A stretch of DNA of 64,000 nucleotides from Haplodiscus bocki (lineage: Eukaryota). The position numbers and the translations under genes were made by a program. Under the pieces are notes generated by a model. That model saw only the letters and a program-made list of their open reading frames with translations. It was not told the origin of the DNA and ran no database searches. Below are positions 1 to 58,669 of the stretch, piece after piece. The stretch covers positions 15,562,001 through 15,626,000 of the forward strand of contig OZ296653.1 of the NCBI GenBank assembly GCA_965655095.1, given 5' to 3'. The first letter of the stretch is position 1, and each line of letters begins with the position of its first letter.

Positions 1-1388
1 AATTTCTTTTGTGAAGGAACCAATTCTCTGCGCATCCACAGAACAGACATCGATTGCTTCGAGATCCGCGTACACAACAAACGGAACTTTTTGAGTTTTC
101 TGCCAATTCACAAATTCGATAGTCGGCGAGGAAATGGGCATTCGAATTTCAAGCGGAGCATTTGACTCACAAAATTTTATGTGATTCATGTAGTTTCTCT
201 TTATTATTGACTGGAAACAGTTTGAACAGAATCTCGACTTGGAGCCATTTTTTCGTTTCTTCTCCGATCGAGTCAGCCTCTGAAGCAAATTCGAGAAGTT
301 TTTGATGAGACAGTAATGCGTTTTGGAACCACTGACCAGGCGAAGTAAATTGACACGACGCTCCGAGTTTTTGTTCTTGCTGTAGAACACAGCCACCAAT
401 TTCCCATTCTCCAGTTGATATACATTAATAGAGACATTGTTTCTTTTCTCGAAAGGCTGTATACTGGATAAGGGCATGGGCATTCGACTTGAATTGAATT
501 TCAGCGGCTTCACATTTTCCTTATGAGATTTCGGGGAAAAGGCGCGACCGGTGAAAGCAAATAATGCGGCTGCAACACAATATAAAAAACAGAAGTTGTC
601 GTTCTTGTTTTTAACGTTCAAAAGACTTTTCGAAAGACCCTTCAATATCTTTGGCGTTTCTATGTAAGACGAGCCGTTGAGGGTTTGGCAAGTTGCTCTT
701 TTCACTTCCACAGATTGTAGGCTTTCTATCACCCATCCAGAACCACAAGAAGCAAGGACATTGAGCTTCGACATTAGTTGATCTACGTGGTCAAGGTATT
801 CTTCATCTGTGATGTTGTTGGCAATTCTAGCGAGGAAAGAATTGAAGAATGCCGTAACTTTATCATTGTTAATGGTTTCACGAGGTCGACGGTAATAGTA
901 AGGCCAGTTTTCATATTGGCTACTTTTTGAAGTTCGGCATCGATGAAATCCATTATGCTCTGTTGGTGCATAACTAAATAATTGAACGGATCAATGATAG
1001 AAATCTCTTCTTTTGATAACTTCAAACAATGCGTTTTGAATCTGTCATTCACAGCCACAGTTGTAGCTTCGACTTGAGCGGGACTTCCGGTTCGTTTCCG
1101 AGGGACATTCTCCTCAGACAGTCTATGTTCGGCCACCTTATGGACATAGAGAGACTTTTCCGTTCCAAAGAATTTAGGGCAGAAAAAACACCTGTGAACG
1201 TTCGGCGATTTGTGTTGATTTTTCAAATGTTTGAGAAGATTATAGCTTTTGTTGAATTGGAGAGCGCATTCTCCACACTGGAAGGAGACAGCTGTTTCGA
1301 TTATATTCTGCTTATGTTTGGTTCTGAGATGATTATTCAGGAACCGCTGAGTTTTGAAAATCTTGCCACAAGTCTCACATGATAACAT
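1..1388 (-). pseudogene. polB: Protein-primed DNA polymerase B N-terminus (C2H2 zinc fingers, terminal-protein/OTU-like region, ExoI); one frameshift near 870
   Basis: ORF 783-1388 has three C2H2 fingers. After a frameshift the frame continues ...GSGWVIESL...YIETPKILK...DNFCFLYCVAAAL...HYCLIKNFSNL...PFVVYADLEA to base 1, collinear with element B PolB. Confidence 0.9.
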
Positions 1389-2002
1389 GATAGTCGAACC
1401 AAGCTATTGATAGGAGAGAGGGTTTCCCTGAACATCTAAAACTTTTCGACGCTGTTTTTGATATACGACACAGGAATTCCTAAACCACGTTTCATGATTA
1501 CAAAAAATAAATCAACAAAAATTGAATCAAAAAAAAGGAAAACCATCTGGACATTTTTATTTCGAAAATTTTTTTGAGGTATGTGGCTCCCTTTGGGTAA
1601 CAGTCAATTTTAAGTTTTCGAATAAGATATTCAGCTGAGGTATTTAATATTTGGACATTATAATTGAATTGTTAAAGTTCGAATTTATTTGGTGAAGTTT
1701 TAGTACGAGAATACAGTACGGTCGTTGAATGCATTTTATCTATGGAATTAGGCATATGGTGTCGTTTTTGTTAGTTTTCGTGATGGGTTCAAATAAATTG
1801 TACGTAATTGGTATCATCGTATATTCTCTTGACAGCAAGATGTCAATTCTATTTTGGGTTCGAGTTTGGTGGCTTCATCTATCAGTAAGCTGTCAAACTA
1901 GTTTTCTTGGTCAATATTAGGCAAAACCTTCATAATTGTGCAAAAACTGCAAAGGAATCAAAAATTCACTAAACCCCCCCCCCCCCCCCTTACAATACTA
2001 CT
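1..2002 (-). mobile_element. Polinton/Maverick (adintovirus-like) element A, one terminus; truncated by the window edge
   Basis: Ends in ctaaac-(C)n-ttacaaTACTACT at 2002, nearly the same as the right terminus of element B (ctaaaccacccctccttcctaTACTACT). Shares the TIR motif taagctgtcaaa (~1885). PolB starts ~610 bp inside the terminus. Confidence 0.8.
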
Positions 2003-23887: not shown

Positions 23888-24157
23888 AGTAGCATAGAAA
23901 GGGGGGTTTAGAGCCACTTATGACTCTTTCCATATTAGGATGTGCCGTTAGAGCCACTTATTGCTCCTCAATCTCATTCTTAATACGTTACCAACTCCCA
24001 GTTTAACCTCATGACAACTTTGACAGCTTATCTAGTTCAACTTTCTGACAGATTTCAAGCCACTTATTGCTCCTCAATCTCAATACGTTACCAACTCCTA
24101 GTTTAACCTTATGACAGCTTTGACAGCTTATCTAGTTTACCTTTCTGACAGATTTCA
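23888..24157 (+). repeat. Left TIR of element B with internal ~100-bp tandem duplication
   Basis: Reverse-complement match to 38574-38742. The block agccacttattgctcctcaat...ctgacagatttca occurs twice (23952-24057 and ~24058-24157). Confidence 0.93.
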
Positions 24158-24848
24158 AACATTGAAGCCAAGATTTCGCTGTGGTTCAAATATCGAATAA
24201 TATACCAATACTGATGAAAATGTTCAAGCCTCATCATATTCTGAAATATTTCCTTATGGGAATCCAAAACTTACCGAAACGAATTTAAAGAATTTGACCA
24301 ATTTGAAAAAATCAGCGCATTTTGCCTCAAATTTCAAAAAATGAGCTCAAATAAAGGAACATTGAAAAAAAATCACGGATTGAAATAGATTATACTAGCA
24401 AACAGTTCTGCCGGATCGGCAGATCGAAATTTTCAATCGGTTCAATTCTTTTTAATGATACGTTTTTTCAGTCCCTGTCATTACGCGCAATGAATGAAGC
24501 AGGTGAGTGACTTTGGCGGACGCTTCGACGATCTCACTCGCTTACTTCAATCGGCAGGATCGTCGCGACGTCAAAGCACAGTCACTGAGTTTCATTTACT
24601 TGCTTTTTGTTGGCTCGCTATTTTCACTGCTGACTTCGGTCTTTCAGCAATGACGTGAAAAAATTGTGATAGTTTGAAAGCTGAGACACGGTTCATTCTC
24701 TCCAATTTATATAGGATTCTTTGAAAAATGTACGAAATCATTATATAGTGCAATTTCAACCTCAATTTCGACAAGGAGTTTTTATATAAGCCTACGATAC
24801 TGAAAGGTTCTAAGAATCCACTATTCTTTTTCAATGTTCCTCAGCAAA

Positions 24849-27800
24849 ATGATTCGATGTGACGATTGCCAAAAAGTTTTCACATCGAAACGGACTTTTT
24901 ATCAGCATATTCGCCAAAAACAAAATAAAGAGCCAACATTGCATCTGCGGAATTTCGTCTGTGGTCATTGCAATCAAAATCTCCCTTTGTTCGTTCAACC
25001 TTCGTCGCCACATTCGAAATATTCATAATTTAACTGGAAATTTCAAATGTCTTTCATGTTATGTTGTAATCGGATGCGCAGAGTTGCTCGAAAATCATGA
25101 AAAACAAACTCATTTACAAGCCTCCCTGTCTGCTATTTTTCAACACGCTGTGTCCGATCACAACCTGCAAGCTTCTTGTGTTCAAACTTCGCTCAATGAT
25201 ACTTTCAAGGTTTTCATATTAAACCTGGAACCAGAAAACGTGGAACCTTTCGAATTTCTAACCTCCAGTGAGGAGAGTATCATATCATTTGTCAACGAAA
25301 AACTACCTTTTAAGGGGTCGAACAGAGTTGAGATAACTATACATGTTAAACTGTGCAAGTCGTTGCAGGAGGAACGTGTTACTGTGTACTTTCATTCACC
25401 AATGGAGCGTGTTGCGCATGAGTTAGTCCAAGACGATTTTAAGAACATGATTGATGCAATAATTTCACAATTGAATGTGTATTGCTCTGGTGGCTCAGGA
25501 TGGGTCATAGAAACACTAAAAACTTTGGAGATCAGGATAGCCGACCCCTTCAAAGGAACAGCATCATCTTTCATCGAGACCCCAGGTGAACTCAAAAACG
25601 TATACCGAAGTTTGCTCAACATAAAGAGTTCTGGTTTCTTTACTCTTTACTTGCTGGCTTATTTCCTCAAAAAAAGCATGTTGAGCGACCCTCTACTTAT
25701 TCGCCGTACATGGACCAGCTTGTTTATAAACTTTCTAATTTTCCAATGAGTTTAAGCAAAAATCCAAGTTTTGAGAAACTAAATAACGTTTCAAAATCTG
25801 TTTATCGATTCGAACGAGGCAGGCTCCTGAATGTTTTTTATAGCAAAAGTCCAAAATGCCGACGAAAAGTGAAACTGTTGCTGCTTGTTGACCATGACAA
25901 AAGTCACTATTGCCTGATGAAGAACTCTTCGAACCTTATGCACCATCTGACTCGATCTTCGTCAAAAAGAGTTGGAGGTCGAAGAACTCACTTTTGCGGC
26001 ACCAGTATGCAATCAATTGTTAAACACAATAGCAATCACTTTCAGTTTTGTGGGCACCACAAACCGCTGGAAATAAAAATACCAGACAATAACAAAAAGC
26101 TGACTTTCGAAAACTGGCAAAAAACGCAATTAAACCCTTTTGTTGTTTATGCAGATGTAGAGGTAATTGACGTGGCTTTTGATGGTGCTGGTGAAAACAA
26201 TTTTCCAAACACAATCGGAATTCAAAGACAGTATCCCGCTAGCTTCGGAGCTAGTTTTGTTAACTCCAATTGTAAGTGTTTTGCATAGCTTGCGGAACCT
26301 AAAACTTGGCTGTTCTCAACTGCTAATTTTCAAATCAGATCATGTAGTGGGTTTTTGAAGTTTTACGCTTTTTTTGTTACAGCACATACAATTGAGAAAT
26401 CGGCTTTTTATCGAGGCGCAGATTGTATTTCAAAGCTTATGGAAACTCTCCGCTCATGGTTGAAACAGGTGTACAGTGAAAAGCAAACATTCAGGTGGCT
26501 TCAAATTTCTGCCGATTGTGAAAAATACCTATTGTATCCGCTGACAATCATTTGTTGCATATGTGGAGATTCAATTACTCAATCCGAGCGTGTTATTCAT
26601 CACTGTCATGTAACTGGTAAAGTATTCGGAGTGGCCCATTCCTCCTGCAACTTAAAAGCGAGATCAACAAATTATCTGCCATAATTTTTCCATAATCTTT
26701 TACGTCACGATGCTCATCACATTATCAAAAACCTGACTCTTCTCTCCGGTGAAAAGTTGTCTGCCATTTCTCGAACCGACGAAACGTATAATTATTTTAG
26801 CGTTTCTGTTCCTGTCGGATCTTATTATACAAAGAATCATAAAAATGCCACAATTACAAACAACATCAGATTTCTGAATAGTTTCCAGTTCATGTCTCAA
26901 AGTTTAGACTCTCTACAGAAAACATTGAAAAATGATGACTTTTCGCTATTCAAGACGTTTTTTTCTTCCACACATCCGACAGTCGATTGGAAGTTACTCA
27001 CTCGAAAAGGCTATTTTCCATACTCCTATTTGGACTCATTCCCAAAGTTCGAAAAACCTTTACCCATTTATGGAGACGACTGGAAACAAACCTTGACAGG
27101 CAAAATTGACATTTCCCAGGCAGACATTGCCCAAGCCTTCAAAATTTACAGCATGTTTGGTTGTCACAACTTGGGCAATTACCATGATGTGTATTTACGG
27201 ACTGGTGTTTTAATTGTAGCTGATGTTTTTGAGAAATTCCGGCAAGTTTGTATGAAAGAGTACAAACTAGATCCAGTTCACTTCTTCTCAGCTCCCAAAC
27301 TGAGGTGGCACGCAACGCTAATTACTACTCGCGTCGATTTGGGTCTTTTGAGTGATATTGACATGTTGTTGTTTCATGAGAGAGGAATTCGTGGAAGTAA
27401 TAACGGAATTGGTGAGCTACACCATTTCCGAGCTAACAATAGAGATTTGGATGACTTTGATGAAACAAAGGCGAATGTTTACGGTGCGTTTTTTGATGTT
27501 ACTTCTCTTTATGCCGGTACCACGCAACAAACTTTACCTGTGGGCAGTTATGAGTGGAATGAAACACTTAAATCAGAGATATCCTTGCTACCAGCGACGA
27601 TTCAGTTGTTAGATTTTTTGTAGAAGTCGATATGACCTATCCTTCTTCTCTGCATGACTCTCACAATGATTTGCCTCTGGCACCCGAAAAGATATTGATT
27701 CAACAGTCAAGGTTATCTCCCTATGCACAATCTTTCAATGTCAAGTTACCAAGTGACGGTCGAGAAAAACTAGTTGAGACGTTATTGGATAAGAATCGTT

Positions 27801-29337
27801 ACGTTTGCCACTACCGAAAACTTAAATTTTAAGTCAATCAGGGTCTCAAAGTTCAAAAGCTTCATCGTGTAATTCTATTCCGTCAAAGCAAAAGGCTATG
27901 TGATTACATTTCGAAAAACACTATTATGAGTAAGCAAGCAACCAATGATTTCGAGAAAAATCTCTATAAATTAATGAGCAATGCTTGTTTCGGAAAAACT
28001 ATCGAAAACTTGCGAAATCGAAGAGAAATTCTTTTTGTTAACAACGAAAAACAAGCTGGGAAATCGTTGTTGAAACCTACATTCAAATCTTATCAAATGA
28101 TTCATAATGGATTGGTCTCCGTTTCTTTCGCCCTGAGTAAGATTGTTTGGTGAAAGCCTACCCCTGTGGGAGCATCCATACCTGATTAGTCTAAACTGAG
28201 CCTCTACAAGTTCCACTACGATGAAATGAAACCACGTTTTGGTGACAAAATAAAAGTATGCTACAAAGACACGGACTCACTTTTGTATAGAGTCGAGACT
28301 GAAAACTTCTACTCAGAAATAGCCACCTTCAAGCACTTCTTGGACTTGTCAGATTACCCCGCAGAGCATTTTCTACATGACAAAATGAATAAAAAGGTTC
28401 CGCTCACGATGACATATGAATTGCAGGGGAAAGTATTGAGTGAAGTTGTTTGCCTCCAATCGAAACTTTATAGTATTCAAATTGGAGGCGGTGTCAAACA
28501 GAGCACAAAAGGAGTACAAAAAAGTGTCAAAAAAACCCTAAATGACGAATTGTACAAAGAATGTTTGCTGAACAAAGGAAAAGTGAAACGGTTCATGACC
28601 CAACTTAGATCTATAAACCATCAAATTGTTGTCAGTCTCGTTCACAATGTAGCCCTGAGCAGTTATGATGACAAACGGTATCTACTCAATGAAGGCATTC
28701 ATTGGCTCACATACGGACACTACAAAGTTAAGGGACAGCCAAGCAGCAATGGTTAATTTCTTTTTCACATTTTTCGGTAAAGTTCACAGTCTAAAACCCT
28801 CATAATTTTTTCCCTGTGTTTCTCAGAATCCGACGTTTCCTCGCTGCTCAGTCAAAACGACGATGAAAGTGATAATGAAAGTTCCTACTACTCTAACAAC
28901 GCTCCAAGTGACACAGACGTAGATGACAGCCGACGCGCAACTCCACCAACTTTACACAGTTTCCTGCAGCATCACGAATGTTTTTGTTAGAAAGCTCGAT
29001 TTGCTCTTTCTCATCATTGGTTTTCATTTTTCTGGAATTCAAAAATCCGTGAATTTCAGCGCCTCCGGACCCTGGTTTCCACTAACACCACTACTCAGAC
29101 GTCGATAGTGATGAGCATTGCATTGAATGGGACCGCTTCGATGAAGTGGTCGCAGATGCTGAACAAGTCGAACCCAGCAATACGTGTCCCTTCATAGACT
29201 GGGAGGCGTTAGAGTCGATTGATGATGATGTTGATGAAAATTCCCGTGATAGTGCTAGTAAAAATGGTATTTCAGCGTCCGCGAATAAAGGATGTAAACT
29301 TGTTCTCTATAGTGATAGCAGTAACACTGACAACTAG
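24849..29337 (+). pseudogene. polB: Protein-primed PolB (ZnF, TP/OTU, Exo with EndoVII/HNH insertion, Pol), multiply frameshifted, with predicted introns and a spliced acidic tail
   Basis: Fragments in order: C2H2 fingers, YADVE (ExoI), CCIC..HHCHVTG..AHSSCNL (EndoVII/HNH), RKGYFPYSY, DVTSLY (motif A), KLMSNACFGKT (motif B), YKDTDSL (motif C), SKLYS, DDKRY...YGHY ending at 28756. Tail exons at 28827-~28985 and 29060-29337. Confidence 0.95.
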
Positions 29338-29383
29338 TATGAAAATCTATTCATCGTAATTATTCTGAGTATAACAAACCTTA

Positions 29384-29995
29384 TCAAAAATTACAGTTAC
29401 AGTGTATTTTGAAATAACGTACAATGTCAATCTTTGAAACAGTTGTTAGTTTGGAAAGGTAACGGTTGGTGAAACATTGTATTTTCGATGTGAAGCTTTT
29501 ACTTTCTTTACCGAAGAAAGTAGAGACGTTTTCAGCAAAGTGAATTTCATTTAGGTAGTGGGCCATAAACAAACAAAACAGTCCGCATAAGTTAGAACTG
29601 GGATTTTGCATAGGGAAAGTTATCTCAAATGCTCTTATCGTTCTCGATGAAAGGGCAGCTAATCGTTTCTGTATTTTTGTGTAACTTTTGATGTGTTCAC
29701 CGAGAGGATCCCATAGGAAAATCGTTACTATTGCATCACTAGACGTTAGAGCCTGCATTTTTGAAGGATCAATTAAAATGTATGACAGCAAAAGCCAATG
29801 CTGTCTTGCTTCGGTCTGGGCTGCACTGTTTACAATTTGATAGAAAAAAAATTGGCCCGTTGTCACAGCAGAGTCTAGTATTTCCTCAAAGACTCGACCC
29901 AAAAAGAAGTTGTCAGACGAAGCCACACCAATAAATTTTTTGAAAAGTTTGGGACACCAGTTATCCGCCAATTGAATTAACCTCAAACTATCCAT
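29384..29995 (-). CDS. Adenain-like cysteine maturation protease (element B)
   Basis: IVNS...QHWLL...WDPLG...QNPSSNLCGLFC gives the His/Asp/Gln/Cys catalytic set. The true start is probably MDSL at 29995, overlapping the hexon stop. Confidence 0.9.
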   Translation of the reverse strand: MDSLRLIQLADNWCPKLFKKFIGVASSDNFFLGRVFEEILDSAVTTGQFFFYQIVNSAAQTEARQHWLLLSYILIDPSKMQALTSSDAIVTIFLWDPLGEHIKSYTKIQKRLAALSSRTIRAFEITFPMQNPSSNLCGLFCLFMAHYLNEIHFAENVSTFFGKESKSFTSKIQCFTNRYLSKLTTVSKIDIVRYFKIHCNCNF

Positions 29996-31334
29996 TGACC
30001 AACGGCGAAATCTTTGAAAAATTTCGAGAACTGTCAATACAAATTTGACTGAATCTTTCACCAATTAGAAATAACTCGACTGCCTCAGGTAAAGCTTTGC
30101 TGAAAGACAATTTGAATGTTATTCCTGCTCCCGCCAATTCGGGAAAAAGTGTCAAACTTGTGCAAGCTTCTCTTATTGATGTTATGTCGAATACTAGGTA
30201 GAAATGGTTATCCTGATAGTCTTCCAAGGCAATGCCGTTGCCGCCACGTTCGAATCCCAAAGCTGTTATGGTATTGTAAAACAGACGTTTGTCAATTGAT
30301 GTATCGAATGGCGTCACTGCCATTGGTAAACCGTTTCCTCTCAGTAACTTGACCCTTTGCAGGTTAAATTTTTCATAACTAAAAGGCGTTGAAGCCGTCG
30401 TTGTTCCGCGGAAAAAACGATTCCGAACCATGCACAGTGTTAAGCGACGAATGGGTTCAGTGCCAAAGATGTTTTCTTTTACAAAGCAATTCTGTCCGGA
30501 TTGTATTATAAAGTTTTTTGTTGAATTTTCTACGTACGGATATACCGCACAACTCTTTGTGAGCGCCCGTTCAGTGCTAAGTTTCACTGCATCCGACAAG
30601 ACAATCTTGTTGACAAACAGAGATGCTTTCTCAATTACAACAACAGGCGGATTTTTATCAAGACTTTTAACTGCATCTGCATCCAAATCGGTCAAAGTTT
30701 CCAAAGCGCAAAGGTTGGGCGACCGATAGGGGCGTAAGTGAAGTGTCACGCCTGGCAGTAGTAAAAGCTCGCAATCCAAAAAGTCAACATGTGGAGCTCC
30801 ATAGAGGTAAAGTGAGCACGTACCATAATCAGCAAATTTTTTCATGATTTTGTTTTTCTTTTCTAAATTTTTTTCTTCGTTTGGTCGATAACGGTCCATG
30901 TCCTTTTGCTAACTGGGTCTGTTGTTAATTCTGTTTCGACAAAGGCGGCGTGGTGGTAGTTGTTGTTGCTACTGGATGTCAATTTGCCGTTCAGAAATAT
31001 TTCAACGTGTGAAACCAAAGAGTGTAGCGTGTTGTTGGAAAAGTAAATTGTCTGGCGTTGCAGTATCTTTTCCATCTGGGTTGTATAATTTTACGTCCAA
31101 TCCCAAACAAACTGGGTGCAAATCAACGCAGTTTTTATTGTCTGATGTGACAAAAAAATCTAGCTGAGGCCCTCTGCAACCTACATGAGGAAAGACTTCT
31201 TGATCCAAGGATCCTTCCTAATTTATCAGTACGGACGGTCTTTCAAAAAAGTCTAGAGCGCTGTGGGTGACGGGATTTGCAATTTCAGTTGAGGCTCCGA
31301 AATAGAGGTTTTGGTTGCTATTGCTGGTCTTCAT
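29988..31334 (-). pseudogene. Double jelly-roll major capsid protein (hexon/PY), frameshifted (element B)
   Basis: Fragments GPQLDFF, NNTLHSLVSHVEIFLNGK..SSSNNNY, LLPGVTLHL, ALGFERGGNGI, FYLVFDIT, LFPELAGA align with the element C hexon. Confidence 0.9.
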
Positions 31335-31378
31335 CACTCCTTCCTTCGTTATGTGAAGCTTGCTAATCAAGTTCTTCA

Positions 31379-31960
31379 CTAGTTGTTGAACGCCACAACA
31401 GAGAGTATATCGGACCGACTTCTCGCAGCAAACTGCTTCCGATTAATGACTTCTTTCACTTTATTGTCTCGTGTTCGCCGCCCAAACGACGGCCCGCTCA
31501 CCACCCGGTGCCTGCCGGCTCCTTCGCTCGTCTTCCGCCCGCCCGGCCGCCCGCTCCGTCCCGCGCCGCCCACCGCGGTGAGGCAATTGGTCGCACAATC
31601 TCAGATACACTTACAATTGTTTTTTTTTGATGTATATGCGCGAGCAATAACTCGTTTTGAAGAAGCAGCGGAGGTGGTCGGAACAGTGGTTTTTGAAGCA
31701 CTTTTTTTGATTGTTTCCCCAAGCACAGTCTTTTGGTCGTTTCCTACCCGAGAAACTTTTGGTCGTTTGAGAGTTCCGGTACAAATGTCGATAACAAGTT
31801 CTTTCCAAAATCTTTGGCCACAGGCATCACAAATTGTTTTACGAGAGGCATCACTACGCCAATCCTCCAGATCTACAATGCCGCGCCGGCCCGCGAAAAG
31901 CCACTGCATTGGGAGTTCGAATCGCCTTTTGCCAGATTTGATTGGCAAAGTGAGCATCCA
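31379..31960 (-). pseudogene. Basic core protein (adenovirus pVII-like), frameshifted (element B)
   Basis: Fragments GVVMPLVKQFVMPVAK..FVPEL, VGGAGRSG and RSRSDILS match element C 59746-60285. Same position between penton and hexon. Confidence 0.7.
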
Positions 31961-32249
31961 TCAATCTGTCTCGTTCTTTTTATCTCCGTGTCTCTTTTCC
32001 CAACGACCACAGTAAAGGAGATGCTCTTTTGTGACTAACTCTTGTTACAGATTGTCAACGGACAATTGTTGTTCATGTTAGTCAGATGGATGGATGGAAG
32101 CTGCCCACAGGGAGCACGACTGCTTCATCTAACTTCGAATTTAGAGAATAAGGAAATTGGCAAAGTTTAGAAAGAAGCACGCTGGAGCTCAGAAGGATGA
32201 CTACAACAACCACACTGAAAGCAAAAATTGTGGTCTGTTGCGCTGGAAT

Positions 32250-33241
32250 TTATGTTGTTTGTCTAAATTGCAAAGTGATGTTTGTTCTTCCTCGACTCAA
32301 AGCAAAGGAATGAGACCGCCTGCTTCATTTCGAAGAGCAATGGTTAATGAATGAATTGAAGACTTCATCACTCGACGCCATTGAATTCTGGTGAACGTTC
32401 TTTTGTTGTCACCAAGTAGTACGGCCCTGAGTAGTGCTGTTTTTGTGTCTCCGAGAATTCCGTTTTGAACCAAATCACAGTAAAGAAACATAGTGTGACG
32501 TCCTGCTGTTAGATCAACAGGATAGTTACCAATTTGCTCGCTCGTTCTGCTGCGTCTTTCAACTTCTTTTGGTTTTTTACAGTGTTGCGGGACCTCCAAA
32601 CCATGCCTTCCTTCAGGCTGTTTGGCGTCGTTATTCGTTTGGCTACAATCCACTAAGTATTCCAAACCGAGTATGTTTTTCAAATCTTCGGAAACAGCTT
32701 TGAGTCAGATTTTTTTCTTTTCTTTATTTGATGTCGTGCTGAAGTTGAGGTGCAGTAACTGGGAAGCTTCGCAAATCTCCCGGCTCAGTGGCAATTGACT
32801 GATATCTCAGCCAACACTGCTGCAGAGGTTGTCGCATATGGATTGGAGGATAGAGTTGACCGAACTGTAACAGCCTTTCGTTATGAAAAAAACTTCTCTG
32901 GTGAAAATTCTTTTTCAAGCGTAGAACTGTTCCGTTTGAGCAGGTTCCTGGGAACATACATGGAAACCATTCCGTTACCAAAACGCGGCCGCTCAACAAT
33001 AGTTTCTTGTGTTATGTATCACGGTTTTGTTTATCTCGATTAGGTTGATGGCTGAACAGACCTTCTGTCGCGTTTTCAATCAAACCGGGCCATGACAACT
33101 CCACCAACGCAACCTCCCATGTACCGTGGAGGACCAGAGATTGTGGCAGTAAGGTTGTGAACTTAGCGAGCGTGTTATCGGGAAACGTTGACATGGAAGC
33201 GCAGAGACCAAGTTAATGGTGAAACTTTGCTGTTGACTCAT
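32250..33241 (-). pseudogene. Minor capsid protein (penton/PX), frameshifted (element B)
   Basis: FTINL..FPDNTLAKFTTLLP..L.GTWEVALVE at the N-terminus. MFLYCDLVQ..ILGD..TALLR...IALRNE.G.LIP at the C-terminus. Confidence 0.88.
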
Positions 33242-33244
33242 CTT

Positions 33245-34483
33245 TCACTTTATAGCCAATTCTAGGGTGCTCTGCTCGTTGTCTTTCTCGAATCGTACTA
33301 GCTCGCTCTCGTAGAATTTTCCTTGAATCAACTGATGTTTGCAATCTCTGAGTGAATAAGTGAGGGATTCAGTGTTTCCACTGCTGCAATCTGGAAGACC
33401 TCCTCAGTAAATTGGATGCAATATCCAGGATGAAAAAGATCTATTTTGCGTCGAATGCGAACGTTTTGTCCGAGTTTGAACTTTGGTTTTTTTATGGCGT
33501 TACAATTTTGTAAGGATACTAGAAACGATTCGTCAGAGTTTTTCACCTGGTTTGGCGCCAGCCAGGTGACTCGGTTAATTCAGATTCTAGAATTGATGAT
33601 GTCAACAAATGCTTGTAATTGTTCATGATACACTTCAGTGTTGTTTTCGTGAAGATATTTGAAAATCAGAGCTTTGATTGATCTAATGTTCCTTTCAGCA
33701 AACACCGATTTGGTTTCACTACAAGTCGAATAGAGATGGATTCCCGATTATTGACAAAAGTTGGCAGACTCGCGTGCAAATTCCCGGCCTTTATCTACCC
33801 AAATTTTTTCCGGGTTTGGTGATACAGGCCTCGATCCACTGCAGAACCGAGGTTGCAAAACTGGTGGACCCCGTTTACTGCCCTCAATGACGACAACCAG
33901 AGCTTATCGACAGGCTGCTGCTGTTCTTCGTTTAAGTGGAACAACCCACACGAATCGGCTGAGGGTATCCACTGCAACAAAAAGAAACGTTATTCCCTGA
34001 TTGAATTCTGATCTGCATATCAACCAACCAAGTCAATTGACTAGATTTCATTGAGTCGGTAACTTTGAAATTTAGTCCTGTGAAGTTTCTGCGAGCTGGT
34101 TTAAATTTTGTGTAGGTTTCACTTTTTCGTAGGAAATTGTCAACTTATTTGAAGGTGTAATTTGACTCTTTCTTTACGGAACTCCGGCTTCCAAAATAGG
34201 CAGGATTTTGACAGCATGTGTATATGTTATGTAGCTTACTGTATGCTATCGTTTCTTGAGTCGCTGGAACCAAACGACGCGTTCTTGAACACTTTGAGCA
34301 CAAGAAATTCTCGCTTCTATATTTTGCGTACTCGTTTACAGTTGTCAAACCACTGCATTTGTAATGAACCCAACCACAAACGTTGCAGCAGATGGAGGGT
34401 TGTTTACGCGAGCCTTTTCCGAGAGCTTTTTGACAGTTGTCACAAGTGTATTTTTTTTGCGCGTGCGTTTCGTCGTTTAACAA
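33245..34483 (-). pseudogene. Retroviral-like DDE integrase with N-terminal PHD finger (element B)
   Basis: C4HC3 PHD (CDNC...CCNVC..WVHYKC...FLCSKC) is in frame with YSKLHNIY..PAYFGS. Past one stop come ETYTKFKP, AVDTLSR, WVDKGREF, AERNIRSIK, PKFKLGQNVRI, GKFYESEL. Confidence 0.9.
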
Positions 34484-34542
34484 TGATAAACTAAAACTAC
34501 CACCCCTTCTTAGGATGATTTTGACAGTTGTGATTGTTTACT

Positions 34543-35221
34543 TCAGTCTAGACGCAGCCATTTGGCGTGTTCATTATTGGGTCCAGGAAACGATTTGAAT
34601 GGGCTTTCATTGTTTTCGTTTGAGCCACTTTTCATTTTTGATAACACTTTTTTAGCAAAAGTGTTTGCGAGAAGATATTCTGGTAAACGCAAACGTTTCA
34701 CCAAGTCCAGGCTTAAATCGTCAATCCTTTTATTAGGTATCTGAATATCGGAAAGAAAATCTAAAACTGCCCATCCTGTGTCTCCGTCGTGCAGGCAGAT
34801 TCTCCCAGAAATGTTGTAGATAGAAACATGCCCAATGTTGCTGCTTTTTCCAAGGATTTGTCGGGCTCGCTCGACCTTGCCACCACTCAAACCGCAAGAC
34901 AAAAGGTCCAAAATAACTGTTTATGACTTCACAGCTGTCGCTGCGTCCTCAGTTCGTTTGACGTCAGAGAGACTGCTCCTTGTTGCTTTGCCGAACCTTG
35001 TTTTCAAAGTCATTTGCGCACATTCTGATGCTCTTGGAAAGTCACGAGGAGTATCGATTGAGTTTCCGAGATTAATTTTTGCACAAAATTCTGGACTCCA
35101 ACTTCTAGTGTCATTGGGGTTCACGAAAGTGTGGTTGTCATGAGATTATGCCTGCTACAAGCGATGAGTGTTCATCGAGTGTTATAAGGATGAATTCTTT
35201 TGTCCTACCGCTCGATGCCAT
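34543..35221 (-). pseudogene. Conserved Polinton protein of unknown function between ATPase and integrase (element B)
   Basis: KEFILITLDE at the start and VLDFLSDIQ..NKRI match element C 56788-57505 (DEFVLVPL; ILTFLRDLQ..QKKI). Confidence 0.6.
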
Positions 35222-35344
35222 GGCGTATTTCTAAATGACGTGAAACCGAAGGTTGTATCAAAGCGAGCAGTTTCAATCCGTGGCTAGTTGACAAAATTTG
35301 TCGCTTTCGAACCAATCCCACTTTCCTGTTACATAAAATTTCTA

Positions 35345-35536
35345 TCAATCTGCTGTGCCTCTCAATTTTTTCTTGGAAAAATTCTCAGCCATTGCAATAT
35401 GCCCACTGACAATGTCAAAAAGACAGTTGCAGAAAAAAAATAGATTTTCTTTTGAACAACATAAAAGATACAAACGCCTCACGATTGGTTTCACGTTAAC
35501 AAAAAATTCAAACATATAAAGCTCTCGTTGACTCAT
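35345..35536 (-). CDS. Small hypothetical Polinton protein overlapping the ATPase end
   Basis: 63-aa ATG ORF with FFCNCLFDIVSG. Support is positional only. Confidence 0.4.
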   Translation of the reverse strand: MSQRELYMFEFFVNVKPIVRRLYLLCCSKENLFFFCNCLFDIVSGHIAMAENFSKKKLRGTAD

Positions 35537-36214
35537 TGCTCAAGTTTTCTCTGGTATTGCTTGATGATACAAAGAAAACTGATGGTCCAGTTCCTGAGCA
35601 GTTAGAGCAGAAATTTAGTTTAGCATCCGTACGCGAATCAAAATCAATCATCAAATGACCGAAAAGGGCCTTTGTTGCTTTTTTATATGCGTCGATTAGT
35701 AGTTGTCGATCTCCCATCTGTCGGCCGAGCACGCCTAGCTGTTCTAGGTCACGGGAGCTCATGAACAAAATCATCTGTGTAACATTCAATTCGAATGTCT
35801 TTGAATGTTTGATTGTTGAAAAAGATTGTGCTTCAGTGCAATCAAATGGATATTTCGATGTCCTCCCGCAATTACCAGGTTTAGAAAGTATTCATTTTCG
35901 CAGGCTTGTTGATACAAATCGTCAATTACCACAAGTGTTCTCAAGTTTCGAGATTCGCATTTTTCAACTGCTGACCAGTTAAGGCCCTGATGAAACTCAA
36001 TGGAATGCTTTTGACTGACACAGTTAACCCAGAGGGTGTCAAAATGTTTCTGGTAATGATTATATAGGTAAACAATTTTATCAAAACATGGTTGGAAAAT
36101 TTTGCACTGATTCTTCAACATATTCGATACTAATTGCGTTTTGCCGCTCCCACACGGTCCTACAATGGAAATGAAGCAAAGAGGGTCGGTGTGAATGCGC
36201 TTATTCATTCTTTT
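35508..36214 (-). pseudogene. FtsK/A32-like genome packaging ATPase, frameshifted near 35800 (element B)
   Basis: Walker A GPCGSGKT, Walker B LVVIDD, AGGHRNIH...KHNLFQQ, then AYKKAT..FGHLMIDFD. Confidence 0.92.
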
Positions 36215-36444
36215 CCGTTTGGTACCAAGTAACCGATGCACGTTGACAAAATTGCGATAAACCCAGTTTGCAATGATCTGTTCTCAGCGAAAGCTAGGTA
36301 GGCAATGGAGAAGATTACAATCACACCAACGATGAAGTAATGAGAAAGTACTAAAAAGAAGCGGTTAAATTCAATTTTGTCCGAAAGCAGCCGCAATTGA
36401 ACTGAAATGGAGGTCTGTTTCATTACCATCAAAGATGAAATCAT
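36205..36444 (-). CDS. Small two-helix membrane protein (element B)
   Basis: Two hydrophobic segments ending ILSTCIGYLVPN, homologous to ILSNCIAYLLPN in 55058-55624. Confidence 0.7.
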   Translation of the reverse strand: MISSLMVMKQTSISVQLRLLSDKIEFNRFFLVLSHYFIVGVIVIFSIAYLAFAENRSLQTGFIAILSTCIGYLVPNGKE

Positions 36445-36525
36445 TCAAGTTTACGTGATCTAGGGCTACAGGCTTGATTGTTGATTCCTCAGTCACTTGC
36501 GATGCTAAGCTCGCAGTGCCTTTTT

Positions 36526-36765
36526 TCATTGTGATAAGTGGTTCTTGAATGCGTATAAGTTGAATATGATTTGAAGTGTTTGGTTTAGTCTTGCTAGCTC
36601 AGTTAAGGTCAAGCGAATATTCGATTGCTTACCATTGCTATTTTGCTCAATCAAAATTTTGGGATTTTGCGTTGAAAGAGAAGCCTTCAGCAAGACTCTC
36701 TCGGAAAAAGGTAATGAGAAGGTAATCGCAGGCATCTCCAGTGCAACTGACATCGAGCTCGCCAT
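36526..36765 (-). CDS. Hypothetical protein, possible PC4-like ssDNA-binding fold (element B)
   Basis: LPFSERV..PKILIE..IRLTLTELARL parallels LPLSDTL..PKIFLVRE..LDMSWDEYCSL of 53423. Same position after PLA2. Confidence 0.5.
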   Translation of the reverse strand: MASSMSVALEMPAITFSLPFSERVLLKASLSTQNPKILIEQNSNGKQSNIRLTLTELARLNQTLQIIFNLYAFKNHLSQ

Positions 36766-36789
36766 TTTTTGTAATGATTAGAATGCCAA

Positions 36790-37229
36790 CTGCTCGTAAA
36801 GTGCTCCGTGGAACAATTTCAGATAAAGCCAGTACGACAAACCAGATAATGTCCAAGCAGCATGTTATTCACAAACAGCGGTTTTTCTGTAACTGCGTAA
36901 ACATAACCGGGACCTAAATTGAAATTACTCATGAACCCAAACGCGTCGTGAAAAACCGCATGCATACGGAAAAGTTTGAAATATTTGAAGGAACGATCCA
37001 TGTAGCTTTTGCTGGGACCTATTAGCCCGCCATGGGGAGCGAAATCGTTTATATCATAAGGATTTACGTTTTTATCTAGACAGTAGCAAACTGCCAGAAA
37101 CGCGTTTTTACTTTTCGGATTTCTCGGGAAAAGATAATTTACCTGGTCAAAATTGCCTTTCAATTGTTTTAAATCAACTAACTCTCGCATGATCTCTACG
37201 CATCCGAAAAACCAACTGCTTTTGTCCAA
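36790..37229 (-). CDS. Parvovirus-VP1u-like phospholipase A2 protein (PLA2X-type) (element B)
   Basis: APHGGLIGPS...FRMHAVFHDAFG...GPGYVY...LLGH contains a Ca-loop-like GP motif and the catalytic HD. The end is probably frameshifted. Confidence 0.75.
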
Positions 37230-37232
37230 TTT

Positions 37233-38114
37233 TCAATTGATAATGAATTGGCACAAAAATTGAATGAAAGAAAACAAATTAGGATCAAACTTGAAATCTT
37301 TTCTCTCATTACCCTCGAATACAGAGTCTGAAGCTTCGGTGCATTCAAAACATTGGCACTGGGCTTTGGAATGTCCAAGATCCACTTTGAGAACATTATT
37401 ACGGTGAGCAATGTTGATGTTCCCGAAACCACGTTGAGGCAAATTGATGAAACCAATCACACAATCTTTGAAGATTGATTTGGACTTCTTCAGCTCCGCC
37501 GATTTTCTGCACAGATAACATAGTTCCTCGGCGTCTTCATTCTCGTCAAACTCAGTGTAACAAGATCGCTGTAATTCCCACACGTTTTCAAATTTGCATC
37601 CCAAGTCTTTTGTTGATTTAGTTTGCAACATCGATTTCATCCTCTCGCCATGTATGAAGAGTCGGTTGCCTCCATAACTTGCCTATCTCTTTATACAGTT
37701 CTCCGGATACGATACTGTAAACAACTTGACAAAGCTGTTTCGAATTTTTAAAGGTGGTTTTGCGCTTGTGATATTTTCACCGATGCTTTCTTTTACGAAG
37801 TTTTCGGCTCCCACGAAAGCTTTCAAGTAGAGGAAAATGTGATAACGCTCTCCAGTAAAGTTCGAACAAACATCTTCTGTTTCAGAAAAACTTCCTGTGT
37901 TGTGGCATCGTATGGTGTATTCACAATGTGTACTGCTTAACAGGGTTTGTAGGAAGCGACAAAAGCTTTTGGCCAGTTTTGGTTGCTGAAACTCATTCGC
38001 ATACCTAACAATTTTCAAAGGAGGCTCTTCATGCTCTTCCCATTCGCCTTCTTCAGTAGATGAGAAAACCAAGTCATGGAATTCTGATGGAACTTCTCTC
38101 AGCATACTTTTCAT
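37233..38114 (-). pseudogene. Hypothetical protein with HUH-like motif, split by one in-frame stop (element B)
   Basis: ORFs 37683-38114 and 37233-37640 are in the same frame. YTIRCH...RYHIFLY...VSYPE matches YVIGAH...HIHILV...VWCPY of 51646. Confidence 0.55.
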
Positions 38115-38573
38115 CGCGAATTTTCACAGTAGAATGGTCATTGATTTCACTTATCTCTTTTCAGGTTACTTGTCAGGTTATGCAATTTTGAAACTTCCAT
38201 TTCTATGGTTTTTTCCAAAATCAATTGACGTTGTTGCTAGCACAGTTCCATTGCCCTTCCTGTGGTTTCGGTTATCGTCCGAGAACAACGTGCTTGGGTT
38301 GTTGGAGTGTGCTAGCTGCGATCTGGTTTAACACCAAATTGATCTGTTCTGTGGGAAGTCGATTTTTTCGACTCCTCACAGTTGCAATTAACAATTATTT
38401 TTCATTCTTTGCGCTTCCCTTGGTTCACGATCTTTGGAAACTATGTAATGCAAACTTGGCGAGGATCAAGTTTTGCAAGTTAGTTTTGCACAGTTAACAG
38501 AAGTTCAACTTTAAACTCTTTGACATCGTTCAAAATATGCCGATCGTACTTGTTTGCTTTTGTTCAAACAACT

Positions 38574-38742
38574 GTCATAGCTGTCACAAGGTTAAACTAG
38601 ATAAGCTGTTGGAGCTGTCATAAAGTTAAACTAGGAGTTGGTAACGTATTAGGATTGCGGAGCAATAAGTGGCTCTAACGGCACGTCCTTATATGGAAAG
38701 AGCCATAAGTGGCTCTAAACCACCCCTCCTTCCTATACTACT
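38574..38742 (-). repeat. Right TIR of element B
   Basis: Reverse complement begins agtagtatagg...tttagagccacttatggctctttccatat...gttagagccacttattgctcc, matching 23888 onward. Confidence 0.95.
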
Positions 38743-41638: not shown

Positions 41639-42076
41639 ATGAACAAAAGTCTTAGTGAATTTTTGTTACAGCATGTCAGCAATCAACAATCAACAACAAA
41701 CATCAACAACTGCAGCAAACCAAACCCAAGCACCCCAAGACAACCTCGAGATGTAGGTTTCGTGTTTCACTCCAAATTCAAACTTTCGGTTTATTTACCT
41801 AAAAAACTGGCAATTATTTTTTGTTATAGAATTGCGGACGCTTCCTCATCCTCACCACTGTTAGCAACACCTATTTTCTTCCTTCCTCCTCCTTACGAAG
41901 ATATTTACCCGGAGGATCTCAATGTGGCATCAATGGCCGACGTAAGTTTCACTGCTTCGATCATCAGTTTCTTTAAAAAAATCCGGTTTTGGTGTGACAA
42001 CGCTGTCTTGTTTATAGTTAACTTTTTAAAATCCCTATACCGAAAAAATAATGACGTTCTAACAAGTAATAATTAG
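41639..42076 (+). CDS. Hypothetical protein with PPPY motif and C-terminal hydrophobic helix
   Basis: LPPPYEDIY plus NAVLFIVNFL. A possible GT-AG intron lies at 41753-41829. Membership in element C is uncertain. Confidence 0.35.
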   Translation: MNKSLSEFLLQHVSNQQSTTNINNCSKPNPSTPRQPRDVGFVFHSKFKLSVYLPKKLAIIFCYRIADASSSSPLLATPIFFLPPPYEDIYPEDLNVASMADVSFTASIISFFKKIRFWCDNAVLFIVNFLKSLYRKNNDVLTSNN

Positions 42077-42084
42077 CTTTTTTT

Positions 42085-43650
42085 GACTGTTTTTGGCCAC
42101 ACAACGGCCATTTTTGCGTAGTTGGGACGCCGTAAAAGACGTGTAACGTGCAAAATGGCTGGGATGAAAAAAATTCGCGCCGCGCGAACTTTTTGCGGCC
42201 CAAATTGAACGTGCCAAATTGTGTGTTTTGACTGTTTTTGGCCACTCAACGGCCATTTTTGCGTAGTTGGGACGCCGTAAAAGACGTGTAACGTGCAAAA
42301 TGGCTGGGATGAAAAAAGTTCGCGCCGCGCGAACTTTTTGCGGCCCAAATTGAACGTGGCAAATTGTGTGTTTTGACTGTTTTTGGCCACACAACGGCCA
42401 TTTTTGCGTAGTTGGGACGCCGTAAATACGTGTAACGTGCAAAATGACTGGGATGAAAAAAGTTCGCGCCGCGCGAACTTTTTGCGGCCCAAATTGAACG
42501 TGGCAAATTGTGTGTTTTGAATGTTTTTGGCCACTCAACGGCCATTTTTGCGTAGTTGGGACGCCGTAAAAGACGTGTAACGTGCAAAATGGCTGGGATG
42601 AAAAAAGTTCGCGCCGCGCGAACTTTTTGCGGCCCAAATTGAACGTGGCAAATTGTGTGTTTTGACTGTTTTTGGCCACTCAACGGCCATTTTTGCGTAG
42701 TTGGGACGCCGTAAAAGACGTGTAACGTGCAAAATGGCTGGGATGAAAAAAGTTCGCGCCGCGCGAACTTTTTGCGGCCCAAATTGAACGTGGCAAATTG
42801 TGTGTTTTGACTGTTTTTGGCCACTCAACGGCCATTTTTGCGTAGTTGGGACGCCGTAAAAGACGTGTAACGTGCAAAATGGCTTGGATGAAAAAAGTTC
42901 GCGCCGCGCGAACTTCTTGCGGCCCAAATTGAACGTGGCGAATTGTGTGTTTTGACTGTTTTTGGCCACTCAACGGCCATTTTTGCGTAGTTGGGACGCC
43001 GTAAAAGACGTGTAACGTGCAAAATGGCTGGGATGAAAAAAGTTCGCGCCGCGCGAACTTTTTGCGGCCCAAATTGAACGTGCCAAATTGTGTGTTTTGA
43101 CTGTTTTTGGCCACTCAACGGCCATTTTTGGGTAGTTGGGACGCCGTAAAAGACGTGTAACGTGCAAAATGGCTGGGATGAAAAAAGTTCGCGCCGCGCG
43201 AACTTTTTGCGGCCCAAATTGAACGTGGCAAATTGTGTGTTTTGACTGTTTTTGGCCACACAACGGCCATTTTTGCGTAGTTGGGACGCCGTAAAAGACG
43301 TGTAACGTGCAAAACGACTGGGATGAAAAAAGTTCGCGCCGCGCGAACTTTTTGCGGCCCAAATTGAACGTGACAAATTGTGTGTTTTGACTGTTTTTGG
43401 CCACACAACGGCCATTTTTGCGTAGTTGGGACGACGTAAAAGACGTGTAACGTGCAAAATGGCTGGGATGAAAAAAGTTCGCGCCGCGCGAACTTTTTGC
43501 GGCCCAAATTGAGCGTGGCAAATTGTGTGTTTTGACTGTTTTTAGCCACTCAACGGCCGTCTTTGCGTGGTTGGGACGACTGGTTTTGGCCAAACAACGG
43601 CCTTTTTTGCTTGGTTGGGGCTCCTTAAAAAATCGTGGCACGTGCAGAGT
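42085..43650. repeat. 145-bp tandem array (10 near-identical units plus 2 partial/degenerate), each with a 27-bp palindrome
   Basis: Unit starts at 42085, 42230, 42375, 42519, 42664, 42809, 42954, 43099, 43244, 43389 and 43534. Palindrome is AAAAAGTTCGCGC-C-GCGCGAACTTTTT. Confidence 0.98.
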
Positions 43651-57505: not shown

Positions 57506-57650
57506 NNNNNNNNNNNNNNNNNNNNNNNNNNNNNNNNNNNNNNNNNNNNNNNNNNNNNNNNNNNNNNNNNNNNNNNNNNNNNNNNNNNNNNNNNNNNNNN
57601 NNNNNNNNNNNNNNNNNNNNNNNNNNNNNNNNNNNNNNNNNNNNNNNNNN
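57506..57650. other. Assembly gap (145 N)
   Basis: Run of N. Confidence 1.
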
Positions 57651-57661
57651 AGTGATGCTGA

Positions 57662-58669
57662 CAAGAGGGTCTCAGGACAACAGAATCCGAATATCGCAAA
57701 CTACATGGTCTATATACATCGCTCAATCATCCAAGCGCATTTGGTAGTATCTCCAACTTGAGGAATGCTAGTGGATTGCCACGAAAGAAAGTTTTGGCAT
57801 ATTTAGAAACCTCGAAAACTTACACAAAGTTCAAGCCAGCCCAAAGGAAATTTCCACGCCTACCGGTGATTTCCCTTGGCATAAACCACATTTGGTCCTT
57901 GGATGTCGCATATATGGAAAAAATAGCAAAATTCAACGACGGTGTCAAGTACCTTCTTCTTGCAGTAGACAGTCTCTCGCGGAAAATTCGAGTTCAGCCG
58001 TTGAAATCAAAAACCGCCCTTGCTGCAAAATTGGCTTTCGAACGAATGGTTAACTTTGAAACTTTTGAGTTCCCCATAAAGTTGTGGGTTGATGGAGGTA
58101 AAGAGTTCAAAGGTGAGTTCAAAAAATTCTGTAGAGAAAATGAGATCGAAGTGTACCATACATACAGTGAAACCAAAAGCTGCATGGCTGAAAGGTACAT
58201 AAGGACATTGAAAACTTTACTATACAAATATTTTGAGGAATACCAAACTTTCAGGTATATTCCTCAACTTCAAAAATTTGTATCCCTTGTGAACAAGCGG
58301 CGAAATCGGTCGATTGGAATGGCTGCTGATGACGTCAACGCAAAACATGTTCCCCATTTAGTCTCACTTCAGAAACGGCAGTCATTTCCTGGTTCAAAAC
58401 AACCCAAGTTCAAAGTTGGCGATCGCGTTCGCATTGCTTTCAAGGAAATGCCATTTCAAAAAGGCTACAAGCAGCAGTATACAAACGAAGTCTTCAAAGT
58501 ATCACGAGTTTGTGTACCAAAAGTAAAAGGTCCAGTGACATACAAACTCCTCGACTCTAAAGATGAACCCATTTTGGGCAAATTTTACACTCCCGAGCTG
58601 ACTCATTTTAAATACTTACAGGACCGTGGACGGTCGCGCCATCAAACTATATCGTTTGCTACAAGTTAA
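57662..58669 (+). CDS. Retroviral-like DDE integrase (start unresolved next to the gap; no C-terminal chromodomain)
   Basis: YRKLHGLY..HPSAFGS...WSLDVAYM...AVDSLSR...WVDGGKEF...AERYIRTLK...PKFKVGDRVRI..F.KGY...GKFYTPEL. Confidence 0.94.
   Translation, partial: QEGLRTTESEYRKLHGLYTSLNHPSAFGSISNLRNASGLPRKKVLAYLETSKTYTKFKPAQRKFPRLPVISLGINHIWSLDVAYMEKIAKFNDGVKYLLLAVDSLSRKIRVQPLKSKTALAAKLAFERMVNFETFEFPIKLWVDGGKEFKGEFKKFCRENEIEVYHTYSETKSCMAERYIRTLKTLLYKYFEEYQTFRYIPQLQKFVSLVNKRRNRSIGMAADDVNAKHVPHLVSLQKRQSFPGSKQPKFKVGDRVRIAFKEMPFQKGYKQQYTNEVFKVSRVCVPKVKGPVTYKLLDSKDEPILGKFYTPELTHFKYLQDRGRSRHQTISFATS

Follow-up and report, generated by a model that had tools for sequence, protein, structure and literature searches.

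The locus described here raises the question of why a Polinton integrase should begin with a zinc finger of the PHD type, where such a finger came from and what it might do for the enzyme. For the choice of insertion sites by Polintons, a chromodomain on the integrase is so far the only handle proposed, as far as the available text of Starrett et al. goes (PMC8502044). We analyzed a window of 64,000 nucleotides (the whole stretch, positions 15,562,001 to 15,626,000 of contig OZ296653.1 of Haplodiscus bocki), in which a sequence-only reading had noticed an in-frame PHD finger at the head of a broken integrase gene and had suggested that, since PHD fingers read histone H3 tails, it could serve chromatin targeting in place of the chromodomain and might relate to the local clustering of elements. 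The fusion proved to be real and selected; the chromodomain swap and the link to clustering did not hold, and the reading of H3 is doubtful. Our preferred reading, to which we assign a probability of roughly 0.6, is that a finger captured from a LINE sits on a Polinton integrase and would act as a basic tether to DNA or nucleosomes, not as a reader of H3K4. The features on which the argument draws are as follows (window positions).

1..2002, no strand: right end of Polinton A; the element begins before the window
23888..38742, no strand: Polinton B, a full-length degraded copy of 14.9 kb; terminal inverted repeats begin AGTAG; 6-bp target-site duplication CACAAG
24853..28753, plus strand: remnant of protein-primed DNA polymerase (PolB) in several pieces; DVTSLY and YKDTDS read directly
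29387..31042, minus strand: remnants of major capsid protein and adenain-like protease, by resemblance to the capsid frames of element C
33266..34249, minus strand: integrase, broken, with helical N-terminal domain, rve core and SH3-like C-terminal domain and without chromodomain
34145..34147, minus strand: premature stop TAA, not conserved in the family by comparison of sister copies
34289..34444, minus strand: PHD-type Cys4-His-Cys3 zinc finger, by sequence pattern; Pfam PHD E 0.054, under cut-off
34543..34920, minus strand: remnant of an unnamed gene upstream of the integrase gene; a similar frame lies upstream in sister copies
35520..36283, minus strand: packaging ATPase remnant; Pox_A32 E 1e-08
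57662..58669, plus strand: integrase of Polinton C (element 41178-63147), the comparison family lacking both finger and chromodomain

Element B is an ordinary Polinton on every structural test. Polinton/Maverick terminal inverted repeats start with AGT, and here both arms are flanked by CACAAG; a copy on contig C9 is 92% identical across the whole length. The gene order, with PolB facing protease, capsid, core, penton, integrase and ATPase, is shared with six relatives on other contigs, and PolB lies at the same place in the six sister elements. The polymerase pieces of element B gave no Pfam match at E 0.01; we take the DVTSLY and YKDTDS that they contain to be polymerase motifs, and DNA_pol_B_2 scored only for the PolB frame of element C. 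Under the cut-off remained Peptidase_C5 in the protease remnant of element B (E 0.007) and Capsid_N in element C (E 0.004), and the unnamed remnant at 34543..34920 had no Pfam match. In the finger-bearing families PolB starts with C2H2 zinc fingers (783-1403 of the window, minus strand). Poxvirus-type TAAATG starts were absent at the first ATG of long frames in the seven elements checked, and neither the IMG/VR viral contigs nor the phage collection held a relative. Among the sequencing runs listed with a match, none was of RNA.

Element A has its integrase some 8 kb ahead of the window, in a gene that is broken by a frameshift and carries the finger as well (L077:1843-3020). Element C is 22 kb long, has the target-site duplication GAGATA, ends in AGAAGA rather than AGTAGT and carries an open PolB frame of 1,689 codons; near its left end, inside the element, are about ten tandem 145-bp units (41990-43593), each with an internal palindrome. 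Two intron-less PQ-loop genes (Pfam PF04193; 11218-11979 and 39480-40052) stand on either side of element B, and the pair is part of a local host duplication.

On the minus strand of element B the ligand codons of the finger lie at 34444, 34435, 34387, 34378, 34366, 34357, 34300 and 34291, and its frame runs into the N-terminal helices of the integrase (YSKLH from 34243) as far as the TAA at 34145-34147, which bears out the junction first noticed. The gene has four in-register stops (34147, 34043, 33906 and 33750) and six small indels (near 34451, 34069, 34024, 34011, 33582 and 33366), and the indel near 34451 splits the finger from the start-codon frame. This copy is a dead, broken relic. Among the 28 of 29 sister copies that cover the TAA codon, 27 have a sense codon and 1 a stop, and in 11 distinct natural frames of 408-476 aa, chosen for length and not a random sample, the fusion is stop-free from the finger to the C-terminal GKFY motif. 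Finger and integrase end also share a single frame in 55 collected proteins (near-duplicates counted), and within the same genome the finger frame matched at all 150 places scored (608 candidates). Pfam rve scored above its cut-off in an unbroken sister copy (E 1.2e-08), and the acidic triad of the protein P0001 is D153, D233 and E266. We consider the architecture of PHD-type finger plus integrase practically certain. Around residues 205-228 of P0001, later branches of the finger clade carry an insert of 20-30 residues in the catalytic core with a conserved P-x-F/I-C, which is lacking in P0182, an early protein with a 2A-like motif.

The finger had been called a canonical C4HC3 PHD. Its ligand order holds; the word canonical does not, given its spacing and its Pfam scores. 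In the window the pattern is C-x2-C-x15-C-x2-C-x3-H-x2-C-x18-C-x2-C, with the Cys4-His-Cys3 order and the aromatic residue before the last Cys pair that define PHD fingers (Phe two before Cys7 in 11 or 12 of the 12 rows of subfamily alignment A1). Three residues instead of four separate Cys4 from His in 20/20 Polinton fingers and in 0/33 host fingers, and Trp or Tyr precedes Cys3 in 19/20 as against 0/33, the host set being sampled from the 30 best Pfam loci of the genome. Pfam PHD reached at best E 0.0026 among 12 members, at less than 24 bits, and every score fell under the cut-off. Among Atlas clusters the closest are PHD, at scores of 0.88 that we take as no more than a lead; among solved sequences, the PHD fingers of PHF23, KDM7 and TAF3 come nearest (E 0.01-0.9). 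In a whole-protein model the finger forms a two-strand hairpin and a helix at pLDDT 66-80, while both fold searches returned integrase cores only. From its sequence pattern, we classify the finger as apparently PHD-type.

Neither the integrase of element B nor that of element C has a chromodomain, as had been noted, but to say that the finger stands in place of one is misleading, because the finger-less integrases lack it too. The chromodomain PF00385 was listed in none of the best 120 of 359 integrase homologues, and long tails occurred in only 2 of 112 newly read homologues, both of them run-ons. All 39 chromodomain candidates of the genome were scored; 18 were matches, none of which lies within 1.5 kb of an integrase. 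The integrase frames stop within about 30 residues of GKFY, and the finger-less families share this C-terminal motif. The sampled Polinton integrase clade as a whole is without chromodomain, and since this holds for finger-bearing and finger-less members alike, loss of the chromodomain is wider than gain of the finger.

What the finger does can be approached through its residues. The net charge of the Polinton fingers has a median of +6.5 (range +3 to +9), against a median of -1 in host fingers (range -9 to +6), although a positive net charge, up to +6, is also seen in some host fingers of the type that reads K4me3. Three positions before Cys3, Met or an aromatic residue is found in 0/20 Polinton and 10/33 host fingers; after Cys3, Polinton fingers have N, H, T, I or Q where host fingers of the K4me3-reader type have D. 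No acidic cluster precedes Cys1 in the Polinton fingers, the residues there being basic. The divider Trp two before His is kept in 20/20. Two before Cys1 the window's lineage has an aromatic residue, as TAF3 does, and the earliest branches have Leu; the finger of this lineage thus retains half of a methyl-lysine cage. The accessible sections of PMC3241642 give an aromatic cage as a requirement for reading K4me3, often together with an acidic Arg2 pocket, and an acidic cluster before Cys1 as the requirement for reading K4me0. The basic PHD fingers of VEL proteins, as described in the available part of PMC9640981, bind polyanions and not H3. Basic charge, missing reader residues and the VEL precedent together favor a DNA or nucleosome tether over an H3 reader or a partner module. 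We propose the tether tentatively, at somewhat less than even odds for this part of the reading taken singly, but consider it likelier than histone reading; an accessory role in target engagement is plausible.

The finger would have been retained as an N-terminal extension ahead of the helical N-terminal domain, where it may add grip on target or donor DNA. In foamy-virus integrase, too, an extension domain precedes the helical N-terminal domain. The finger takes the place of that domain, a likeness of position only, and the foamy virus extension is not a PHD finger. Prototype foamy virus integrase is the best structural match of an unbroken copy (Foldseek E 1e-14; VIA Z 19.6, 233 aligned, rmsd 5.8), and this match spans the core and C-terminal domain only.

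Among the alternatives, the one that survives best holds that the finger truly reads H3 (K4me2/3, and perhaps R2 methylation as well) and guides integration in the way that the RAG2 finger guides the RAG recombinase. We regard it as doubtful. The divider Trp is invariant, the aromatic before Cys1 is present in the window's lineage, and the best PDB matches, weak as they are, are the K4me3 readers PHF23, KDM7 and TAF3. Moreover, the Trp or Tyr before Cys3 stands at what we take to be the position of the Arg2-pocket tyrosine of RAG2, and in 19/20 fingers it could act likewise; the available text of PMC3241642 places that tyrosine in the pocket. The claim that the finger reads H3 tails is nonetheless weakened by the empty cage position (0/20), the missing Asp after Cys3, the strongly basic charge without an acidic patch before Cys1 and the Leu two before Cys1 in the earliest branches.

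Genomic distribution also bears on this reading. We compared 140 finger-bearing copies (150 matches less 9 tandem or near duplicates and 1 small-contig match; one of the dropped pairs lay 11 kb apart) with 70 finger-less matches chosen by family and identity band, from which finger-bearing, tandem, small-contig and about 7 unassigned rows had been excluded. The outer fifth of chromosome arms holds 45/140 of the former and 11/70 of the latter (Fisher p 0.013), as a steering finger might produce, but this test was post hoc, one of several and open to effects of age and survival, and we treat the distal lean as a hint only. The 140 copies showed no contig bias (p 0.15). Nor were neighbours within 0.1-1 Mb in excess, which counts against an H3 reader. 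CpG content of the flanks was uninformative because the genome shows no CpG depletion.

The same counts bear on the proposed tie between finger and local clustering, which we rejected as an effect of the finger: there is no genome-wide neighbour excess, and element C stands in the cluster without a finger. The sequence-only reading had left room for a finger in element C across a gap (57506-57650), and a finger within 900 nt upstream was found in 0/12 close and 0/7 more distant sister copies; most of the close copies have a Met about 12 residues ahead of the first integrase helix. Since the family of C is finger-less, the finger does not explain the local cluster.

Unlikely, and a little more so than histone reading, is a module for protein-protein contacts, unconnected with the target site, whose partner would be a cofactor of the host, another subunit of the integrase or a protein of the virion. 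Invariant hydrophobic residues are exposed on the finger (the Trp before Cys3, Trp, Tyr and Phe), later branches of the finger clade also gained the core insert, and PHD fingers with non-histone partners are known (PMC3241642, in the part available). Our results indicate no partner, however, and the same type of finger fronts unrelated LINE enzymes that share only the need to act on chromosomal DNA.

The history of the capture was traced through the integrase itself. In a tree of 50 integrase rows, built with the finger columns left out, the finger-bearers form one clade (support 95/91), within which a subclade without a 2A-like motif, including the window family, is nested at 99/95; the lines with the motif are the two earliest branches, and a tree of 113 rows agrees. 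In these early-branching integrases a 2A-like leader, LLxxxGxExNPGP, stands right before the finger, the motif lying 3-7 residues before the first Cys in the two earliest branches. It was present in 13 of 14 database proteins checked (P0218 starts inside the motif), and intact ExNPGP was found in 12/19 copies from the same genome, in two Polinton subfamilies; the copies that bear it are complete Polintons. In the window family the motif is absent and a basic start takes its place. The Leu-rich tract followed by ExNPGP that marks class A 2A peptides occurs in the early-branching relatives only, and the Asp of the class A motif GD(V/I)ExNPGP is replaced in the Polinton motif by Gly, Asn or Cys. 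A single clade of all 2A-bearing rows was rejected at p-AU 0.04, a marginal value for a grouping that was named after the first tree had been viewed. On this phylogeny the finger-bearing clade has one origin, and the simplest order would be that leader and finger were gained together and the leader was lost later in the window's lineage.

The leader also led to the probable donor, which the sequence-only reading missed although it saw the fusion correctly. A profile search of 1.84 billion representatives gave 337 hits at E 0.001. Among the best 150 of these 337 were divergent integrases in which a Leu-rich tract with ExNPGP at its end directly precedes the finger. Two further proteins of this set share leader and finger but lack an integrase; their cluster mates run on into an APE endonuclease, followed by a reverse transcriptase (RT) in mates from a 285-member cluster. 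P0158, P0170 and P0185 have the layout leader, 2A, finger, linker and APE, and P0186 has APE and RT. When a profile of 20 Polinton fingers was used, the finger of an APE-type LINE came first at 48 bits and two CRE-like LINE fingers next at 40 and 33 bits, against 17 for the best host finger; the short spacing and the Trp before Cys3 occur in these three LINE fingers and in 0/33 host fingers. Several families of APE-RT LINEs in the genome itself have the same layout of leader, 2A and finger, one of them with LLIRAGIETNPGP against LLIRAGVEKNPGP in the Polinton, and the 2A motifs of three of these families likewise have Gly for Asp. The APE-type LINE finger that comes closest belongs to another assembly; of the 2A-LINE fingers of the genome itself, the 8 read intact have canonical spacing, and the short-spaced candidate L245 is broken. 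In CR1/Crack elements, Odon et al. described 2A motifs close to where ORF2 begins and a PHD domain that lies between the 2A and APE (PMC3708506, in the part available).

Because the signature is common to the LINE fingers and lacking in all 33 host fingers, a LINE 2A-PHD cassette was likely captured once. Capture of the finger from a non-LTR retrotransposon with a 2A-like leader is, in our estimate, very probable. The 5' end of the LINE (leader, 2A and finger) would have been joined in frame to the start of the integrase by insertion or recombination, and the 2A motif, if active, could have removed the leader or lowered the output of integrase. The opposite view, of a host chromatin gene as the donor or of LINEs that took the finger from a Polinton, is improbable. 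A tree of 54 finger columns, with weak support, does place the short-spaced fingers of the three LINEs within those of the Polintons (70), and the host fingers came from only the 30 best Pfam matches; against this, neither the short spacing nor the Trp/Tyr before Cys3 occurs in those host fingers, and host genes leave unexplained a 2A motif that is widespread before PHD fingers in the LINEs of this genome and in the accessible text of PMC3708506. With a finger tree that is weak and nests the LINE fingers, we argued the direction of transfer from the spread of 2A-PHD among LINEs.

A different N-terminal finger, ending in C-x-C, is found in the Polinton-type integrases P0237 and P0248 of other assemblies. 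It scores 6-10 bits on the Polinton finger profile and is closest to a CRE-like LINE finger; a common origin with the other fingers was not rejected (p-AU 0.27), and a separate capture is likely. A broader synthesis is improbable: that Polinton integrases of this animal lineage recruited LINE PHD fingers twice (the 2A-led short-spaced finger and that of P0237/P0248), that the finger is a portable target-site module common to DDE, APE and restriction-like enzymes, that it shifted insertions to distal arms, and that early members are polintoviruses with active StopGo control of the integrase. Among LINEs of the genome with RT and no APE, which we take to be CRE-like, an N-terminal PHD-type finger is found in L141:1854-5141 (plus strand), L254, L187 and L202; the last ligand of the L141-family finger appears to be His, and the finger of L187, grouped at first under ORF1, proved to belong to a CRE-like LINE. 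Another LINE frame of 1,565 codons (L241:410-5104, plus strand) has a 2A motif, three to four PHD-type fingers, APE, RT and RNase H.

Selection on the finger was assessed from its codons. Over 51-53 finger codons in five subfamilies, pN is 0.13-0.35 and pS 0.53-0.93, the catalytic core falling in the same range, and all eight ligand positions are invariant in 12/12 rows of alignment A1. The finger is under purifying selection across the five subfamilies, and the fusion is a real, selected trait of this Polinton integrase family. As an account of the finger, a neutral passenger or a frame open by chance is hardly credible: Pfam scores under the cut-off and the good spread of finger-less families in the same genome would suit it, but pN far below pS, ligands invariant across subfamilies with near-saturated synonymous sites and the 55 single-frame proteins do not, and the codon test already largely refutes it.

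The closest known systems share parts of this architecture. Polinton/Maverick (adintovirus) integrases, as set out in the accessible part of PMC8502044, have the same rve integrase accompanied by PolB, packaging ATPase, protease, capsid and terminal inverted repeats; that text predicts a chromodomain on the integrase and leaves PHD unmentioned, whereas here no sampled family has a chromodomain and one clade has an N-terminal PHD-type finger. ORF2 of CR1/Crack/Ingi-type elements likewise places a short leader, a 2A-like motif and a PHD finger before the integration enzyme (PMC3708506, available part); here a DDE integrase of a DNA virus-like element, not APE, comes after the cassette, and Gly replaces the canonical Asp. 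Ginger1-9_HM transposase, from what is available of Bao et al. (PMC2836005), also fuses a Gypsy-like integrase to a PHD finger, but the finger is C-terminal, and the protein has an Ulp1 protease domain and an H2C2 zinc finger and belongs to a cut-and-paste transposon. The PHD signature combined with high positive charge recurs in the VEL-family PHD superdomain, in unrelated plant proteins that offer an analogy only (PMC9640981, in part). PHD fingers are frequent accessories of transposons, among them CR1, Ginger, Rehavkus and Chlamys (accessible sections of PMC2836005 and PMC8557442), so the surprise is limited.

RAG provides a further parallel. RAG1 is a DDE enzyme. RAG2 puts a PHD finger on a transposase-type machine, and its use of an aromatic residue in place of an acidic Arg2 pocket is possibly parallel; it is, however, a separate subunit and a proven reader of H3K4me3, while the Polinton finger is fused, basic and without part of the cage (PMC3241642, in the sections available).

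Our search of the open literature, without Repbase reports and journals under subscription, turned up no PHD finger or 2A motif on a Polinton integrase. None of the entries in the supplements of PMC12338488 concerns an integrase, Polinton, Maverick or adintovirus, and the available parts of PMC11512398 and of bioRxiv 10.64898/2026.06.17.732966 have no such integrase, although the 4,218 2A-like peptides of the latter could affect how new the 2A motif is. We read the fusion as a real, selected and apparently new variant of the Polinton integrase whose origin seems traceable to LINEs. A whole radiation is without chromodomains, and one clade of it gained a different accessory domain. Families with and without the finger live side by side in a single genome, in hundreds of copies, which makes the influence of the domain on insertion sites directly measurable. 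The retained 2A-like leader would be a rare trace of the passage of a domain out of a retrotransposon into a DNA virus-like element, and it orders the steps, gain with the leader coming before loss of the leader. Fragments of Polintons with the finger or the integrase start also occur as tandem arrays in this genome (G000), on contigs C8 (91.26 Mb), C12 (5.08 Mb), C6 (2.11-2.13 Mb) and C5 (17.78 Mb).
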